This document shows, in pieces, positions 30,331 to 59,883 of a stretch of 64,000 nucleotides of DNA (its first letter is position 1; each line of letters starts with the position of its first letter). The translations under genes were made by a program, and so were the position numbers. The notes below the pieces were generated by a model. That model did no database searches. It was not told the origin of the DNA and saw only the letters and a list, made by a program, of their open reading frames with translations. This DNA comes from Escherichia coli (GTDB lineage Bacteria; Pseudomonadota; Gammaproteobacteria; Enterobacterales; Enterobacteriaceae). The stretch lies in the NCBI RefSeq assembly GCF_030013595.1, contig NZ_CP122768.1. One strand, given 5' to 3'.

Positions 30331-31046
30331 AATAAATATCCTCCGGCATAGCCGGAGGTTTTTCAAATGCGCCTGTAAGGCTCTGTTACCAGCCGCGCCC
30401 TAACAGGCGCATACGATCTGACATTTGCATTCAACTTCGTTACTTACGGCCCGTAAACGGGCTGCCCGGATATGGAATCGATAACTGCTCCCCCATTTTA
30501 TCCTCTTCAAGCTGGTGCTTTATGTAGTCCTGTATCTTCGCCGTGTTCTTACCCACCGTATCGACATAGTACCCTCGGCACCAGAACTCCCTGTTTCTGT
30601 ATTTGAATTTCAAATCCCCAAACTGCTCGTAAAGCATCAGACTGCTTTTCCCTTTCAGATATCCCATAAAGCCGGATACGCTCATTTTGGGTGGGATTTC
30701 CACAAGCATATGGATATGATCTGCGCAGCACTCTGCTTCCAGAATCCGTACGCTTTTCCACTCACACAGCTTTCTCAAAATACTGCCTATCGCCCTACGC
30801 TTCTCTCCGTAAAACGCCAGTCTTCGGTATTTCGGCGCAAAAACTATGTGATATTTACAGTTCCAGCGGGTGTGCGCTAAGCTCTTTTCGTCCCCCATTG
30901 GGACCCCCTTTTGATTTCTTGTTTGACACTTGCAGTTGCCAGACCGCAAGGTGTTTTAACAAATCAAAAGGGGTTTTAATAACTGGCTCAAAGCTGAAAG
31001 CTTTCCGGAACCCCCAGCCTAGCTGGGGGTTTTCTGTGCACAAAAA
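30331..31046 (-). mobile_element. IS200-family insertion sequence, copy B (inverted relative to copy A)
   Basis: Reverse complement of 30331-31046 matches 5664-6379 essentially base for base; encodes an identical TnpA; one end abuts the icdC terminator hairpin. Confidence 0.8.
30440..30898 (-). CDS. tnpA: IS200 Y1 transposase TnpA (second copy)
   Basis: Protein identical to the ORF at 5812..6270. Confidence 0.88.
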   Translation of the reverse strand: MGDEKSLAHTRWNCKYHIVFAPKYRRLAFYGEKRRAIGSILRKLCEWKSVRILEAECCADHIHMLVEIPPKMSVSGFMGYLKGKSSLMLYEQFGDLKFKYRNREFWCRGYYVDTVGKNTAKIQDYIKHQLEEDKMGEQLSIPYPGSPFTGRK

Positions 31047-31093: not shown

Positions 31094-31257
31094 TTACATG
31101 TTCTTGATGATCGCATCACCAAACTCGCTACATTTCAGCAATTTAGCGCCTTCCATCAGACGTTCGAAGTCATAGGTTACGGTCTTGGCGTTGATTGCGC
31201 CTTCCATACCTTTAACAATCAGGTCTGCGGCTTCAGTCCAGCCCATATGGCGTAACA
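31094..31257 (-). pseudogene. icdC: icdC: displaced chromosomal 3' fragment of icd (last ~53 codons), left by prophage integration
   Basis: 31094-31254 aligns with the 3' end of intact icd (58633-58796) with scattered substitutions; similarity stops near 31255; preceded by the same terminator hairpin (31048-31070). Confidence 0.85.
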
Positions 31258-31767: not shown

Positions 31768-32883
31768 CTATGCGCCTGGATTGGGTTCGATCATACTCAG
31801 CGTTTTTGCTATTTTCTTAATCTCATCATCATTATCCAAAAAAGAGGCGTCTTTTATTACCACAGTACGCTCTTCTTGTAATAGCTCACCTATTTTTTCT
31901 TCTATAAAATCTAAGGTTGGCATTATAATCTGGATGTCTCGAGAAAAAGTAGTTTTTGCATCTTCTATACTGTTGAATCCATTATGTATATGAGTGAATA
32001 TTCTCTTTTTAAACTGTATGTCTTCTGGATTTCCCACTAACTGACTGAAATCTCCTTTCATAACTCTTTCGCTTGTTTCAAAGAGCTGTATTGCTATCGA
32101 GTCGATTAATTCCTTTTTGGACAGAGATGCTTGTTCATAAAATTTGGTGACTAACTCTGTTGGTAACTTTCTTGAGACGACTTTAATGGACAGTCTCTGA
32201 AATAGGTAAGGTGCCACCACGCCCACACTGAAAGGGTGAATCCTCCCTGGATTTAATAATTTTATTGTGACGTTTTCAAAAACTAGCTCATTGATTTTAC
32301 TATTTATGAATTCCATTAAATACTTATCTAATGATAATGTTACCGACGCAACCGCTTCTATCACTTGTTTAAATGGCTCGCCTTTCAAGGATTTAAAAAA
32401 CTCTTTGTTATAACCAAAGAAATCCACAAAACCTAAATTTATTCGATTTTCTTCTTTAGTATTTGAAATGCGAATTTGAAGTTGTTTTAAGTCTTCATCG
32501 GTCAAGTATTTTAAACCATAGTCATCAAGCGCGTTACGTATAACTTTATCTGCAGATTCTAAGTCGATTACAGTTTTTACATTAAAAAACAATGATAACA
32601 ATGAATCATACTTATGAACTCGCAAGGTTAAATCTGTTGCATTTGATGCGGTTACATTTATACGTCTCAAAAGATCAATAACTTTACTAATTGGTAGGCT
32701 GTTTTCAAAAATTTTGAATGACTCGTATTCAGATACAACATCTTTTATATACTTACTGATAGTATGAGACTTTATTTCCACCTCAACTTCGGTTGAGTAA
32801 GAATGAATTAGTGAGTTTGTAGTTTCAGCGATGTCATTTGATACATACAACTTATATTCGAAACAATCAGGAGCGGGAAGCAA
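31768..32883 (-). CDS. Continuation reading frame of the Mrr-like gene (about 370 codons, unknown function); no independent start, probably joined by a frameshift
   Basis: Open for 371 codons in AT-rich DNA but first in-frame ATG is about 190 codons in; no SD before the TTG at 32883; overlaps upstream ORF by 76 nt in a different frame. Confidence 0.5.
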   Translation of the reverse strand: MLPAPDCFEYKLYVSNDIAETTNSLIHSYSTEVEVEIKSHTISKYIKDVVSEYESFKIFENSLPISKVIDLLRRINVTASNATDLTLRVHKYDSLLSLFFNVKTVIDLESADKVIRNALDDYGLKYLTDEDLKQLQIRISNTKEENRINLGFVDFFGYNKEFFKSLKGEPFKQVIEAVASVTLSLDKYLMEFINSKINELVFENVTIKLLNPGRIHPFSVGVVAPYLFQRLSIKVVSRKLPTELVTKFYEQASLSKKELIDSIAIQLFETSERVMKGDFSQLVGNPEDIQFKKRIFTHIHNGFNSIEDAKTTFSRDIQIIMPTLDFIEEKIGELLQEERTVVIKDASFLDNDDEIKKIAKTLSMIEPNPGA

Positions 32884-33233
32884 CTATTATCAATAATGGA
32901 AAACAATAAAAATTTAATTATTTCTCTTAATGCTTGCGGTCTAGTTATTCTACCTTGCATTTTTTTACATTGTATTAAACCACTTACAACACCGTTATGG
33001 TATAGCACGCAGTCGCGTCCTCTTTCAGAAACTCCTTGCATTAAAGATATTGAGGATATATTTTTATGCTTTCCATCTTCAATTTCGTTCTTTACTAACA
33101 AATAACATAGCAACTCAAATTCTCGATCACCTAATTCTGAAAAGGGAAGCAATCCGATACCAGAATCTATAGTCCATGGTCTATATCCTGATTGAGCCTC
33201 GATATTAATTTGTTCGTCACTGATTTTTTTCAC
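32808..33233 (-). CDS. Mrr-like PD-(D/E)xK restriction-endonuclease catalytic domain protein (N-terminal part of a probably longer gene)
   Basis: GTG start at 33233 with strong SD (AAGGAGatttaaGTG); translation ...LGDREFELLCYLLVKNEIEDGKHKNISSISLMQGVSERGRDCVLYHNGVVSGLIQCKKMQGRITRPQALREII fits the Mrr_cat pattern (FExL..LL, GxD, QxK, later R). Confidence 0.6.
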   Translation of the reverse strand: MKKISDEQINIEAQSGYRPWTIDSGIGLLPFSELGDREFELLCYLLVKNEIEDGKHKNISSISLMQGVSERGRDCVLYHNGVVSGLIQCKKMQGRITRPQALREIIKFLLFSIIDNSCFPLLIVSNISCMYQMTSLKLQTH

Positions 33234-33548
33234 TTAAATCTCCTTCTAATCTTATTGACCTACTCCCTACATTGTAACAGGGGATGATGATAAGGTGTAT
33301 CTTTCGAGCTATAAGCACGATAAATAAGTGATTAAAAATGACTCTTTAAACTATTTTAATTTAAAAAATTAATTGTTAGTTCTAATTATGGTATGAGGGC
33401 ATTTTCGGCATAGTTCTAACCATATACTTTGGTAAAAATGACTGTTACGGAACAGACCATAGTAATGCCTGCTATTGGCACGGAGCGGGCCGCCTGAGCG
33501 CCGTGGGGTCTGCAAACGGTAAGCATACCGATAACTATACGCTTGGCC

Positions 33549-33968
33549 TTAGTAACTTTTGCTCCCCTCAATAAATCCGCCATCTTTTATCGGACTGCAA
33601 TGTCCTTCTTCATCAATCAGTTGCTCGTCTTTCAGGTAGGTATATCGATAGATAATTGAGCCATTATCCATCTCACCATTGGTTCGTTTCATTAGGAGAG
33701 TAAAATGTAACGGGCTGTCCCTATATCGAGCTATTCCATGAATATTGGCAAGTACCTCATATTGACGCTCAGGTGATAACCCTTTAAATACATCGAGATA
33801 TCCATGGAATGTTCCATAGAGTGAAGAAGTGTAGATCAGTCGCTGCTCTGGACCAGTAACTTTAAGAGTAATTTGTTCACCCGTATTACAGGTTAGCTTG
33901 GCGGGAAATGTCTCAGCCTGAGCAGAAGAAATAGTCAAGCTTAAAATTATCAGGTAGCAATATTTCAT
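33549..33968 (-). CDS. Secreted (signal-peptide) protein of unknown function, prophage cargo
   Basis: ATG at 33968; MKYCYLIILSLTISSAQA|ETFPAKLTCNTGEQITLKV... (AxA signal peptidase site); AT-rich. Confidence 0.6.
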   Translation of the reverse strand: MKYCYLIILSLTISSAQAETFPAKLTCNTGEQITLKVTGPEQRLIYTSSLYGTFHGYLDVFKGLSPERQYEVLANIHGIARYRDSPLHFTLLMKRTNGEMDNGSIIYRYTYLKDEQLIDEEGHCSPIKDGGFIEGSKSY

Positions 33969-34252
33969 GTGATTAGAATGTCCAAAACTAACATGTATAC
34001 TCGGGATTCTATAACTAGTTGGATGTAGACCCAAGATGTATTGGACTATTCTTCGGTTGTAGTTGGTCAAATCATATATTTTATGTCAGCAATGTCTACT
34101 TTTGGCACATAGCAGACCAGAGACACTGGCGTAAAGCCATGGAGGATCGGTGGGAGGAGGTAAAAATCCTCTCATGCAAAAAATACGCAAAATCGATAAC
34201 AGTTGGAAATCATTCAATACTCGCACTATCGGAAGTTCACCAGCCAGTCGTA

Positions 34253-34290
34253 GCACGTTCTTGCATATGACGTGGCTACGGGTTTCGAGA
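34253..34290. repeat. Direct repeat R1: diverged copy of the pinE 3' end plus terminator hairpin
   Basis: gtAGCACGtTCTTGCATAtGACGTGgCTACGGgTTTC aligns with 35270-35305 (gcAGCACGaTCTTGCATAcGACGTGCTACGGTTTC). Confidence 0.7.
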
Positions 34291-34376: not shown

Positions 34377-35246
<870 letters not shown>

Positions 35247-35269: not shown

Positions 35270-35305
35270 CGCAGCACGATCTTGCATACGACGTGCTACG
35301 GTTTC
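35270..35305. repeat. Direct repeat R2: pinE 3' end/terminator hairpin
   Basis: Hairpin GCAGCACG-13nt-CGTGCTAC immediately after pinE stop codon; partner of R1. Confidence 0.7.
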
Positions 35306-35858
35306 ATTTATCTCCGACCGGAAACTTCTTATACAAAGTCGATACACCCACATCGTAGATAATCGCCACCTTCTGGCGAGGAGTTCCTGCTGCAATTAAT
35401 CTTCCGGCTTGTGCCCATTGTTCTGGTGTAAGTTTGGGACGACGTCCACCAATTCGTCCCTGTGCGCGAGCAGCTTCCAGTCCAGCTTTTGTTCGTTCAA
35501 CAATCAGTTCACGCTCCATTTCAGCCAGGGCACCCATCACATGAAAGAAAAAGCGTCCCATTGGTGTGCTGGTATCAATTGAATCCGTCAGACTATGAAA
35601 GTTGATGCCTCGTTCGCGCAACTCCTCCACCAACACGACAAGATGCCGCATACTACGCCCCAGCCGATCCAGCTTCCAGACAACCAGAGTGTCACCTGCC
35701 GATAATGTCCTGAGCAGTTTTTTCAGTCCCGGCCTTTCGGACTTTGTGCCGCTTATCTTGTCTTCAAAAATCAGCTCGCATCCTGCACAGTTCAGCGCAT
35801 TACGTTGTAGATCTGTGTTCTGGTCATTTGTTGATACGCGTACATAGCCAATAAGCAT
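35304..35858 (-). CDS. pinE: Serine DNA invertase Pin (Gin/Hin/Cin family)
   Basis: MLIGYVRVSTNDQNTDLQRNALNCAGCELIFEDKISGTKSERPGLKKLLRTLSAGDTLVVWKLDRLGRSMRHLV..., 184 aa, catalytic Ser in VRVSTNDQ; ORF trimmed to ATG 35858. Confidence 0.88.
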   Translation of the reverse strand: MLIGYVRVSTNDQNTDLQRNALNCAGCELIFEDKISGTKSERPGLKKLLRTLSAGDTLVVWKLDRLGRSMRHLVVLVEELRERGINFHSLTDSIDTSTPMGRFFFHVMGALAEMERELIVERTKAGLEAARAQGRIGGRRPKLTPEQWAQAGRLIAAGTPRQKVAIIYDVGVSTLYKKFPVGDK

Positions 35859-35884
35859 GGTAGATCCCCCTGACAAAAGCAGGA

Positions 35885-56246: not shown

Positions 56247-57575
56247 CTGATGAATCCCCTAATGATTTTGGTAAAAATCATTAAGTTAAGGTGGATACAC
56301 ATCTTGTCATATGATCAAATGGTTTCGCGAAAAATCAATAATCAGACAACAAGATGTGCGAACTCGATATTTTACACGACTCTCTTTACCAATTCTGCCC
56401 CGAATTACACTTAAAACGACTCAACAGCTTAACGTTGGCTTGCCACGCATTACTTGACTGTAAAACTCTCACTCTTACCGAACTTGGCCGTAACCTGCCA
56501 ACCAAAGCGAGAACAAAACATAACATCAAACGAATCGACCGATTGTTAGGTAATCGTCACCTCCACAAAGAGCGACTCGCTGTATACCGTTGGCATGCTA
56601 GCTTTATCTGTTCGGGCAATACGATGCCCATTGTACTTGTTGACTGGTCTGATATTCGTGAGCAAAAACGACTTATGGTATTGCGAGCTTCAGTCGCACT
56701 ACACGGTCGTTCTGTTACTCTTTATGAGAAAGCGTTCCCGCTTTCAGAGCAATGTTCAAAGAAAGCTCATGACCAATTTCTAGCCGACCTTGCGAGCATT
56801 CTACCGAGTAACACCACACCGCTCATTGTCAGTGATGCTGGCTTTAAAGTGCCATGGTATAAATCCGTTGAGAAGCTGGGTTGGTACTGGTTAAGTCGAG
56901 TAAGAGGAAAAGTACAATATGCAGACCTAGGAGCGGAAAACTGGAAACCTATCAGCAACTTACATGATATGTCATCTAGTCACTCAAAGACTTTAGGCTA
57001 TAAGAGGCTGACTAAAAGCAATCCAATCTCATGCCAAATTCTATTGTATAAATCTCGCTCTAAAGGCCGAAAAAATCAGCGCTCGACACGGACTCATTGT
57101 CACCACCCGTCACCTAAAATCTACTCAGCGTCGGCAAAGGAGCCATGGGTTCTAGCAACTAACTTACCTGTTGAAATTCGAACACCCAAACAACTTGTTA
57201 ATATCTATTCGAAGCGAATGCAGATTGAAGAAACCTTCCGAGACTTGAAAAGTCCTGCCTACGGACTAGGCCTACGCCATAGCCGAACGAGCAGCTCAGA
57301 GCGTTTTGATATCATGCTGCTAATCGCCCTGATGCTTCAACTAACATGTTGGCTTGCGGGCGTTCATGCTCAGAAACAAGGTTGGGACAAGCACTTCCAG
57401 GCTAACACAGTCAGAAATCGAAACGTACTCTCAACAGTTCGCTTAGGCATGGAAGTTTTGCGGCATTCTGGCTACACAATAACAAGGGAAGACTTACTCG
57501 TGGCTGCAACCCTACTAGCTCAAAATTTATTCACACATGGTTACGCTTTGGGGAAATTATGAGGGGATCTCTCAG
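56247..57575 (+). mobile_element. IS10 (1329 bp, complete), no flanking 9-bp target duplication
   Basis: Outside end CTGATGAATCCCCTAATGATTTTGGTAAAAATCATTAAG at 56247, inside end ...TTATGAGGGGATCTCTCAG at 57575; flanks ggttcaaca / tattaagcg differ. Confidence 0.9.
56354..57562 (+). CDS. IS10 transposase
   Basis: 402-aa ORF MCELDILHDSLYQFCPELHLKRLNSLTLACHALLDCKTLTLTELGRNLPTKARTKHNIKRIDRLLGNRHLHKE... recognised as IS10 Tnp. Confidence 0.92.
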   Translation: MCELDILHDSLYQFCPELHLKRLNSLTLACHALLDCKTLTLTELGRNLPTKARTKHNIKRIDRLLGNRHLHKERLAVYRWHASFICSGNTMPIVLVDWSDIREQKRLMVLRASVALHGRSVTLYEKAFPLSEQCSKKAHDQFLADLASILPSNTTPLIVSDAGFKVPWYKSVEKLGWYWLSRVRGKVQYADLGAENWKPISNLHDMSSSHSKTLGYKRLTKSNPISCQILLYKSRSKGRKNQRSTRTHCHHPSPKIYSASAKEPWVLATNLPVEIRTPKQLVNIYSKRMQIEETFRDLKSPAYGLGLRHSRTSSSERFDIMLLIALMLQLTCWLAGVHAQKQGWDKHFQANTVRNRNVLSTVRLGMEVLRHSGYTITREDLLVAATLLAQNLFTHGYALGKL

Positions 57576-58632: not shown

Positions 58633-59883
58633 TTACATGTTCTTGATGATTGCATCACCAAACTCGCTGCATTTCAGCAGTTTAGCACCTTCCATCAGAC
58701 GTTCGAAGTCATAGGTTACGGTCTTGGCGTTGATTGCGCCTTCCATACCTTTAACAATCAAGTCTGCGGCTTCAGTCCAGCCCATATGGCGCAGCATCAT
58801 CTCAGCGGAGAGAATAATAGAGCCTGGGTTTACTTTGTCCTGACCGGCATATTTCGGCGCAGTACCGTGGGTGGCTTCAAACAGGGCGCATTCGTCACCG
58901 ATGTTTGCGCCTGGGGCGATACCGATACCGCCGACCTGTGCAGCCAGAGCGTCAGAAATGTAGTCACCGTTCAGGTTCATACAGGCGATAACATCATATT
59001 CAGCCGGACGCAGCAGGATCTGTTGCAGGAATGCGTCAGCAATCACGTCTTTAATGACGATCTCTTTGCCGGTATTCGGGTTTTTAACTTTCAGCCACGG
59101 GCCGCCGTCGATCAGTTCACCGCCAAACTCTTCACGCGCCAGCTGGTAGCCCCAGTCTTTAAACGCGCCTTCGGTGAACTTCATGATGTTGCCTTTGTGC
59201 ACCAGGGTCACAGAGTCACGATCGTTAGCAATTGCGTATTCGATCGCTGCACGAACCAGACGTTTGGTGCCTTCTTCCGAACACGGCTTAATACCGATAC
59301 CGCAATGTTCCGGGAAGCGAATTTTCTTCACGCCCATCTCTTCACGCAGGAATTTAATCACTTTCTCGGCGTCGGCAGAGTCAGCTTTCCATTCGATACC
59401 CGCATAAATGTCTTCCGAGTTTTCACGGAAGATAACCATATCGGTCAGTTCAGGGTGTTTAACCGGGCTTGGAGTGCCCTGATAGTAACGTACCGGACGC
59501 AGGCAGATGTAGAGATCCAGTTCCTGACGCAGGGCAACGTTCAGAGAGCGAATACCGCCACCAACCGGAGTGGTCAGCGGACCTTTAATGGCAACGCGAT
59601 ATTCACGAATCAGATCAAGGGTTTCAGCAGGCAGCCAGACATCCTGACCATAAACCTGTGTGGATTTTTCACCGGTGTAAATTTCCATCCAGGAGATTTT
59701 ACGCTCGCCTTTATAGGCTTTCTCGACTGCAGCGTCGACCACTTTCAGCATGGCTGGGGTTACATCTACACCGATTCCATCACCTTCAATGTAAGGGATA
59801 ATCGGATTTTCAGGAACGTTGAGTTTGCCGTTTTGCAGGGTGATCTTCTTGCCTTGTGCCGGAACAACTACTTTACTTTCCAT
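58633..59883 (-). CDS. icd: Isocitrate dehydrogenase (NADP), 3' end supplied by prophage
   Basis: 416-aa [76 protein letters not shown]... Confidence 0.95.

Follow-up and report, generated by a model that had tools for sequence, protein, structure and literature searches.

The DNA analysed here, referred to as the window, is a stretch of 64,000 nucleotides of the Escherichia coli contig NZ_CP122768.1 (assembly GCF_030013595.1), and it consists of chromosome carrying an e14-like prophage of approximately 27 kb integrated in icd. The gene in question lies on the minus strand within this prophage, with its ATG at 33968 and its TAA stop at 33549-33551, and encodes an orphan protein of 139 amino acids (aa) that is predicted to be exported. 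An earlier sequence-only reading of the window had placed such a gene in a low-GC cargo block, and the exact open reading frame (ORF) was recovered here. The gene and its upstream region contain the following features, given in window coordinates:

33549..33968, minus strand: coding sequence, 139 codons and a TAA stop, for the orphan exported protein, from the ORF, its translation and dN/dS
33915..33968, minus strand: part coding for the signal peptide, residues 1-18, MKYCYLIILSLTISSAQA, predicted cleavage AQA/E
33552..33914, minus strand: mature domain of 121 aa (13.8 kDa, pI 5.8, no Trp, Cys at 27 and 124 in precursor numbering), predicted all-beta meander barrel
34006..34034, minus strand: predicted promoter-like element TTGGGT-17 nt-TAGAAT, approximately 35 nt upstream of the ATG, from reading of the sequence
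34071..34098, minus strand: second promoter-like site TAGACA-16 nt-TATGAT, 10/12 matches in a consensus scan, partly conserved in orthologous loci

Comparison of sequences indicates that this is a genuine protein-coding gene under purifying selection and no chance ORF. The dN/dS value is 0.12 when the gene is compared with its orthologs in Citrobacter and Klebsiella, with which the protein shares 71 and 80% amino-acid identity respectively, and both length and architecture are preserved in more diverged relatives (39-45% identity). The purifying selection shows that the protein is in use. RefSeq lists the same sequence in identical E. coli copies as hypothetical protein WP_001333214.1, and a literature search on that accession found no mention of it. 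The GC content at 31-34 kb is 33-38% against 50-59% in the structural genes of the prophage, a base composition (38% GC against that of the structural genes) in keeping with a moron.

As the sequence-only reading had proposed, the precursor carries what is, by its sequence, a Sec-type signal peptide, and it is predicted to be exported. The signal peptide was judged manually from its n-, h- and c-regions and from Kyte-Doolittle hydropathy, a type I signal peptide being recognised by a positive n-region, an h-region of 7-15 residues, small residues at -3 and -1 and the lack of a lipobox or twin-Arg motif. All of these are seen in the protein, with Lys2 in the n-region, a hydrophobic core of eight residues with a mean hydropathy of 2.9, and A-Q-A at -3/-1 followed by Glu19 at +1; neither a lipobox nor a twin-Arg motif was found on manual reading of the N-terminus. 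This layout with small residues at -3/-1 is common to eight lineages; the residues of the signal peptide themselves diverge. For one of the eight, a homolog on a 230-kb metagenomic phage contig, the called start is too far downstream, the real start being MKRYIIPLLCFSAATYG/AKFPANYVC, and the corrected ORF (L018 5900-6306, read from 5900) gains a signal peptide as well as the first conserved Cys.

For the mature protein of 121 aa, modelling predicts with high confidence an all-beta meander barrel with a streptavidin-like fold. The AlphaFold2 model, built on an 11-sequence alignment, has a mean pLDDT of 86 (the mature part mostly >90) and a pTM of 0.79, and shows four short strands, then five long strands and, at the C-terminus, another short one. 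A run with a Gly-Ser-linked tandem construct, serving as a homodimer test, returned identical strands with a pTM of 0.56 and no confident oligomer. Cys27 and Cys124 are invariant in every complete family member, which fits an oxidising compartment, and the two probably form a disulfide. The first four strands are of 4-6 residues only, the strand at 116-126 is polar on both faces, the C-terminus (IEGSKSY) has no alternating hydrophobic beta-signal and the GRAVY value is -0.51. Because of these features, together with the conserved Cys pair, the protein is probably soluble and periplasmic and not a membrane barrel. Its invariant polar residues comprise an FPA motif at the mature N-terminus, E41-Q42-R43, G63/E71, K94 to E99 and the C-terminal IEGxKxY. 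Going by strand order and conservation and not by coordinates, these loops and termini would share one pole of the barrel, and this conserved polar pole is the likely working surface. Foldseek searches of AFDB50 and BFVD with the model found only the identical protein of a Salmonella plasmid and no viral match, while a sequence search of the PDB gave chance-level matches to Kae1/Bud32 only.

Upstream of the gene, the Citrobacter and Klebsiella loci retain both hexamers of the first promoter-like element (TTGGGT and TAGAAT) as well as their 17-nt spacing, which are thus shared by three genera, with the spacer sequence varying. The number of promoter-like sites in the region as a whole is not above shuffle expectation. 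No intrinsic terminator was detected, folding of the 3′ flank being no better than that of shuffled sequences, and a search with Rfam found nothing at the locus of the gene. A sequence of approximately 80-110 bp upstream of the gene (34178-34286, with a partial copy at 35270-35304 and a counterpart at L003 4923-5001) recurs in many E. coli genomes and plasmids at an identity of 84-95%, and is there mostly unannotated or given as a fragment of a "capsid protein". In a Citrobacter prophage it sits between the tail-fibre gene and dinI. It has no Rfam match and may be a boundary or linker of prophage cargo regions. The prophage small RNA svsR was considered as its source and rejected, being unrelated and located at the 3′ end of cI. 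There is also a sub-threshold Rfam match to CssrB at 35270-35326 on the minus strand, between PD-T4-3 and pinE (32 bits against a gathering score of 76, E-value 0.001), which overlaps the partial copy of the repeated sequence and is probably due to chance.

With regard to its relatives, the statement of the sequence-only reading that the protein has no recognisable family holds. Pfam gave no match for it or for any of 12 family members, NCBIfam and PADLOC gave none for the protein itself, and PHROG gave one weak match to a family of unknown function (E-value 0.006). A word-indexed search of 5.8 billion proteins returned 11 clusters, in which every named match is from the Enterobacterales, and an exhaustive HMM profile search of 1.84 billion representatives returned nine matches, seven of them at E<=1e-10. 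One candidate relative, P0017 (an 1878-aa repeat protein, E-value 3e-6), was set aside as probably spurious, its score being summed over repeats. The gene itself occurs in 38 of 5426 complete E. coli genomes and 13 of 72,556 plasmids, and in none of 50,697 phage records; three IMG/VR loci also carry it, all with an identical mature-protein sequence. A further record, NZ_CP081745.1 (L025, "plasmid unnamed5" of strain CX15), was not counted as a plasmid copy. It is a linear contig of 18 kb, rich in frameshifts, in which the prophage-end region of the chromosome is duplicated, and is probably an assembly artefact that would inflate the number of plasmid copies.

All family members that were checked sit on mobile elements, and they occur at the ends of prophages, on plasmids, in an integrative mobilisable element and a defence island, and on a jumbo-phage contig. 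In Citrobacter, Klebsiella pneumoniae and Klebsiella aerogenes, the homologs occupy the extreme end of lambdoid prophages and have SRAP, umuDC-like and dinI genes as neighbours. The Pectobacterium homolog is on an element with two integrases and a relaxase, one homolog is near Thoeris and an NYN RNase, and another is beside xis and int genes. A homolog with 39% identity is carried by an IncFIB plasmid of Atlantibacter, and that of the jumbo phage shares its 230-kb contig with genes for a terminase small subunit, a T4-type lysozyme domain and a SegE-like homing endonuclease. From these sequence records the family is rare, undescribed and confined to mobile elements, and it is often found in slots that collect defence genes. 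As a separate observation, the cargo at the ends of the Citrobacter and Klebsiella prophages is a DNA-damage-tolerance set, with SRAP (YedK-like) and umuC-like genes beside the homolog (L003 5045-7718, L007 8611-12339 and L022 6597-9336), a umuD-like gene in L003 and L007, and dinI in L003.

The plasmid copies of the gene are part of a larger module, the limits of which can be placed on the window as follows:

33382..34231, unstranded: 850-bp module made up of the gene, its promoter-like sites and 167 bp of 3′ flank; IncHI-type plasmids of E. coli and Salmonella carry it with 100% identity, fused to ISKpn26
33382..33385, minus strand: TTAG at which ISKpn26 joins the module in the plasmid copies, from comparison of the window with the right junction of L012; no insertion sequence (IS) is present here in the window
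34216..34231, minus strand: outer end of the module, CGATAGTGCGAGTATT, which from the junction sequences is alike at 10/16 positions to the ISKpn26 terminal inverted repeat GGAAGGTGCGAATAAG

A 739-bp version of the module with 99.7% identity occurs on 106-kb IncFIB plasmids and has a 111-bp deletion adjoining the IS. In each plasmid copy ISKpn26 directly abuts the module, and the resulting unit of approximately 2 kb (L012 5001-7049 in pSAL4596-1 and L013 5001-6938 in pGS04EC-1) is bracketed by direct repeats of 4 bp, which are target-site duplications and read TTAA/TTAA in pSAL4596-1 and TTAG/TTAG in pGS04EC-1. Judging by its likeness to the inverted repeat, the module's outer end is likely to have served as a surrogate transposon end. 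The simplest reading of the plasmid copies is a capture in two steps, in which ISKpn26 would have inserted into a prophage of the e14 kind, at the TTAG shortly downstream of the gene, and would then have transposed at least twice by way of the surrogate end, carrying the gene along. No chromosomal donor with ISKpn26 already beside the gene was found among complete E. coli genomes. On this reading, the unit is a documented case in which an IS captured cargo of a prophage by way of a surrogate end, and the gene then spread on plasmids.

The setting of the gene in the prophage and its immediate neighbours are given by these features:

58636-59883, minus strand: intact icd (NADP-isocitrate dehydrogenase)
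50043-51245: HK97-type capsid gene, among head genes which are followed by tail/baseplate genes and an invertible tail-fibre region
35307..35861, minus strand: pinE-type (Pin-type) serine invertase, inner boundary of the cargo slot
34473..35246, plus strand: PD-T4-3 (GIY-YIG), a single-gene anti-phage defence gene divergent from the target gene (PADLOC E-value 2.3e-140; phrog_5356; RefSeq annotation of an identical locus)
31768..33233, minus strand: gene for a hypothetical protein of 488 aa, split by a 1-nt deletion near 32884
31094..31246, minus strand: icdC, the duplicated 3′ end of icd and attachment-site remnant, its translation matching the C-terminus of Icd, outer boundary of the cargo slot

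Beside icd are a tyrosine-recombinase-like gene and an IS4 transposase, and then the head genes. This IS4-family transposase (56354-57559, plus strand) lies within the prophage and adjoins the integrase-like gene near icd. The prophage may be unable to excise. Beyond icdC are IS200, iraM, ycgX and a MerR-family regulator. The IS200 transposase, located between iraM and the icd remnant (30443-31031, minus strand), has an Rfam STnc490 element in its 5′ region (146 bits).

The cargo slot proper, from the invertase to the icd remnant (31.2-35.3 kb), holds three genes, namely those of the 488-aa protein, the orphan protein and the GIY-YIG protein. In e14 of K-12 the corresponding interval is occupied by mcrA. 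The full three-gene arrangement from pinE to icdC is found in only 25 of 5426 genomes. In other E. coli, PD-T4-3 is located beside different genes (lipase, AraC-family, integrase-core), and it adjoins pinE in genomes which do not have the orphan gene. The slot is thus dispensable and variable among related prophages, as is expected where a moron resides. It is worth mentioning that the pinE-icdC slot of e14-like prophages has the appearance of a defence-gene hotspot, its cargo differing among E. coli.

Of the two neighbours, the one described as GIY-YIG in the sequence-only reading was rightly so named, this being PD-T4-3, a single-gene defence system which works alone when cloned in K-12 (PMC12409345). 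The other had been described as Mrr-like, a label that is weakly supported, by a PADLOC match to the nuclease-like LmuA N-terminus at an E-value of 0.02, with no match to the protein in Pfam. The protein also has a D...QxK motif. Its gene is intact in L001 (WP_000723924.1), to which the window has 1462/1467 identities with one gap. The deletion is in a T run, and the target gene is intact in the same window. The 488-aa gene may be an uncharacterised defence candidate put out of action in this strain; alternatively, the deletion may reflect an error in sequencing.

As to what the orphan protein does, the most likely reading, which is tentative and which we hold with well under even confidence, is that of a periplasmic binding or blocking protein directed against an incoming phage apparatus or an envelope-attacking enzyme. 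It is suggested by the compact exported barrel with its polar pole, the confinement to mobile elements, the defence-slot contexts and the large-phage homolog. The mature barrel would act stoichiometrically in the periplasm, either holding an agent that is on its way in across the envelope or inhibiting an enzyme that attacks the envelope. Candidate targets are the ejection or peptidoglycan-hydrolase apparatus of a superinfecting phage, or an antibacterial muramidase, protease or toxin. The cell carrying the mobile element would be protected, with no joint action with the adjacent nucleases. The streptavidin-like fold is known to include periplasmic protease inhibitors. For periplasmic anti-phage effectors a precedent exists (PMC13128918). 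A bolder form of this proposal, possible but rather doubtful, is that an undescribed family of defence or immunity factors, each a single protein acting at the envelope, has its founding member here; such factors would, by means of the conserved pole made up of the termini and three loops, block phage genome entry or neutralise an incoming enzyme that targets the cell wall or envelope, and would be traded as a stand-alone cassette among prophages, plasmids, integrative elements and a jumbo phage.

The sequence-only reading had considered that the protein might be linked to the flanking nuclease genes or be an independent moron, and it is the latter that the sequence data favour. In a two-gene system with PD-T4-3 or with the 488-aa PD-(D/E)xK-like protein, it could for example be an envelope sensor for a cytoplasmic effector, and such a system might be read into its position next to and divergent from PD-T4-3 and into the Atlantibacter homolog, which directly follows another GIY-YIG gene and has its start codon overlapped by that gene by 4 bp. 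However, besides working alone, PD-T4-3 occurs in E. coli without the target, and no GIY-YIG neighbour is present in Citrobacter, Klebsiella, Pectobacterium, the IncHI plasmids and others. The two GIY-YIG proteins are unrelated beyond the GIY motif, and the Atlantibacter gene is a 705-bp insertion relative to its sister sequence L016, located 87 bp upstream of the start of the homolog, so that no conserved operon or co-occurrence with a GIY-YIG partner is found. The frameshift of the 488-aa gene beside an intact target also speaks against such a pairing. A nuclease partnership is accordingly very improbable, and is largely refuted by distribution. From the unrelated neighbourhoods of its relatives (other prophages, the integrative element, plasmids and the jumbo-phage contig, where it occurs without either neighbour), the genomes with PD-T4-3 and no target, and the nature of the Atlantibacter insertion, the gene is read as an autonomous moron in a variable prophage cargo slot, and the conserved promoter-like element upstream further supports its autonomy. 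As an aside, the Atlantibacter GIY-YIG gene (phrog_1111; L017 3879-4583 in pTL13A), the frame of which runs into the upstream region of the homolog, looks like a free-standing homing-type endonuclease; L016 is a metagenomic contig.

The remaining explanations keep the protein as a single-gene product and give it another role. A small outer-membrane beta-barrel of the Lom/Ail/OmpX kind, that is a moron for virulence or serum resistance, would be expected to have eight strands of at least nine residues, a hydrophobic lipid-facing side, a C-terminal beta-signal and usually no Cys. None of this agrees with a mature protein of only 121 aa with the short and polar strands, the Cys pair, the C-terminus and the GRAVY value described above, nor does any outer-membrane-protein family of Pfam match it, and this explanation is very improbable. 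A lysozyme inhibitor, a type of protein also suggested by the sequence-only reading, is improbable too. Here the protein would be a divergent C-type lysozyme inhibitor of the MliC/PliC type, with a conserved barrel loop inserted into the lysozyme active site, and by eye the HG.ARY and MKR.NGE of the close members are reminiscent of the inhibitor motifs. However, the ARY and KR.NGE motifs are lost in diverged members (TIFSLDDY, IHGQVKIN, QIQTDNGS), PF09864 has no match at E<=10 for the protein or any of the 12 members, and avidin-type barrels match it better than does PliC. Alignment with hhalign gave E-values of 0.2 against 26 enterobacterial MliC sequences and 0.13 against four solved MliC/PliC proteins, with a probability of <1% and approximately 20 N-terminal columns aligned, a negative which is not strong, as these alignments are shallow (Neff approximately 2) and of limited power. 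The barrel could instead carry a small ligand, as other calycin or streptavidin-like barrels do, binding a hydrophobic or aromatic molecule, a cofactor or a metal for a metabolic or stress benefit unrelated to phage. This is unlikely, as there is no Trp and no avidin signature, the conserved polar residues appear to be in loops and termini and not on one strand face as a deep pocket would require, and a nutrient binder would not usually be restricted to mobile elements. Equally unlikely is a host-fitness or host-interaction factor outside of phage and toxin conflicts, such as a secreted factor for an animal or plant host or a periplasmic stress protein. Prophage morons often encode factors of this sort, and among the bacteria that carry the family are Pectobacterium, Klebsiella, Citrobacter, Salmonella and E. 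coli of animal and clinical origin. Against it, the protein resembles no known virulence or stress family in the databases searched, and one homolog belongs to a phage contig of 230 kb, a place in which such a factor is less expected.

Should the protein prove to be a periplasmic exclusion or immunity factor, it would join, as a small module of one gene, the short list of defences with an effect before the DNA has entered the cytoplasm, and the pinE-icdC slot of e14 would then be one that collects envelope-level as well as nuclease-type defences. Otherwise, it is one more conserved hypothetical gene, of limited interest.

In comparison with known systems, the fold invites comparison with avidin and streptavidin, to which the protein has an identity of 5-9%. 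The biotin pocket of avidin depends on Trp residues. Identity with avidin was rejected, as the protein has no match to PF01382 and no Trp. Relative to the MliC/PliC inhibitors (PF09864), the protein is larger by approximately 30 residues and has an extra long hairpin, and their signature motifs SxSGAxY and (S/T)KG, which enter the active site of lysozyme, are not conserved across its family. Cap15, the CBASS effector nucleotide receptor (7n34), is a cytoplasmic barrel with uncleaved transmembrane helices, encoded in a CD-NTase operon. In contrast, the hydrophobic segment of the orphan protein has a conserved signal-peptidase site, its barrel has the invariant Cys pair, and no cyclase gene is listed near the loci of its family that were inspected. 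Envelope-acting morons and exclusion proteins are known from a number of phages, examples being Bor and Lom of lambda, Cor of phi80, Llp of T5, and Sp and Imm of T4. The orphan protein has no sequence or fold relationship to these; it differs from Bor, Cor and Llp in being no lipoprotein, from Lom in being no outer-membrane protein and from Sp in not being helical. What it shares with the classical morons of lambdoid phages and e14 is its genetic organisation, namely a small single gene with its own promoter (here a promoter-like element), a non-essential and variable slot near the prophage end, an atypical GC content and an exported product (here predicted).
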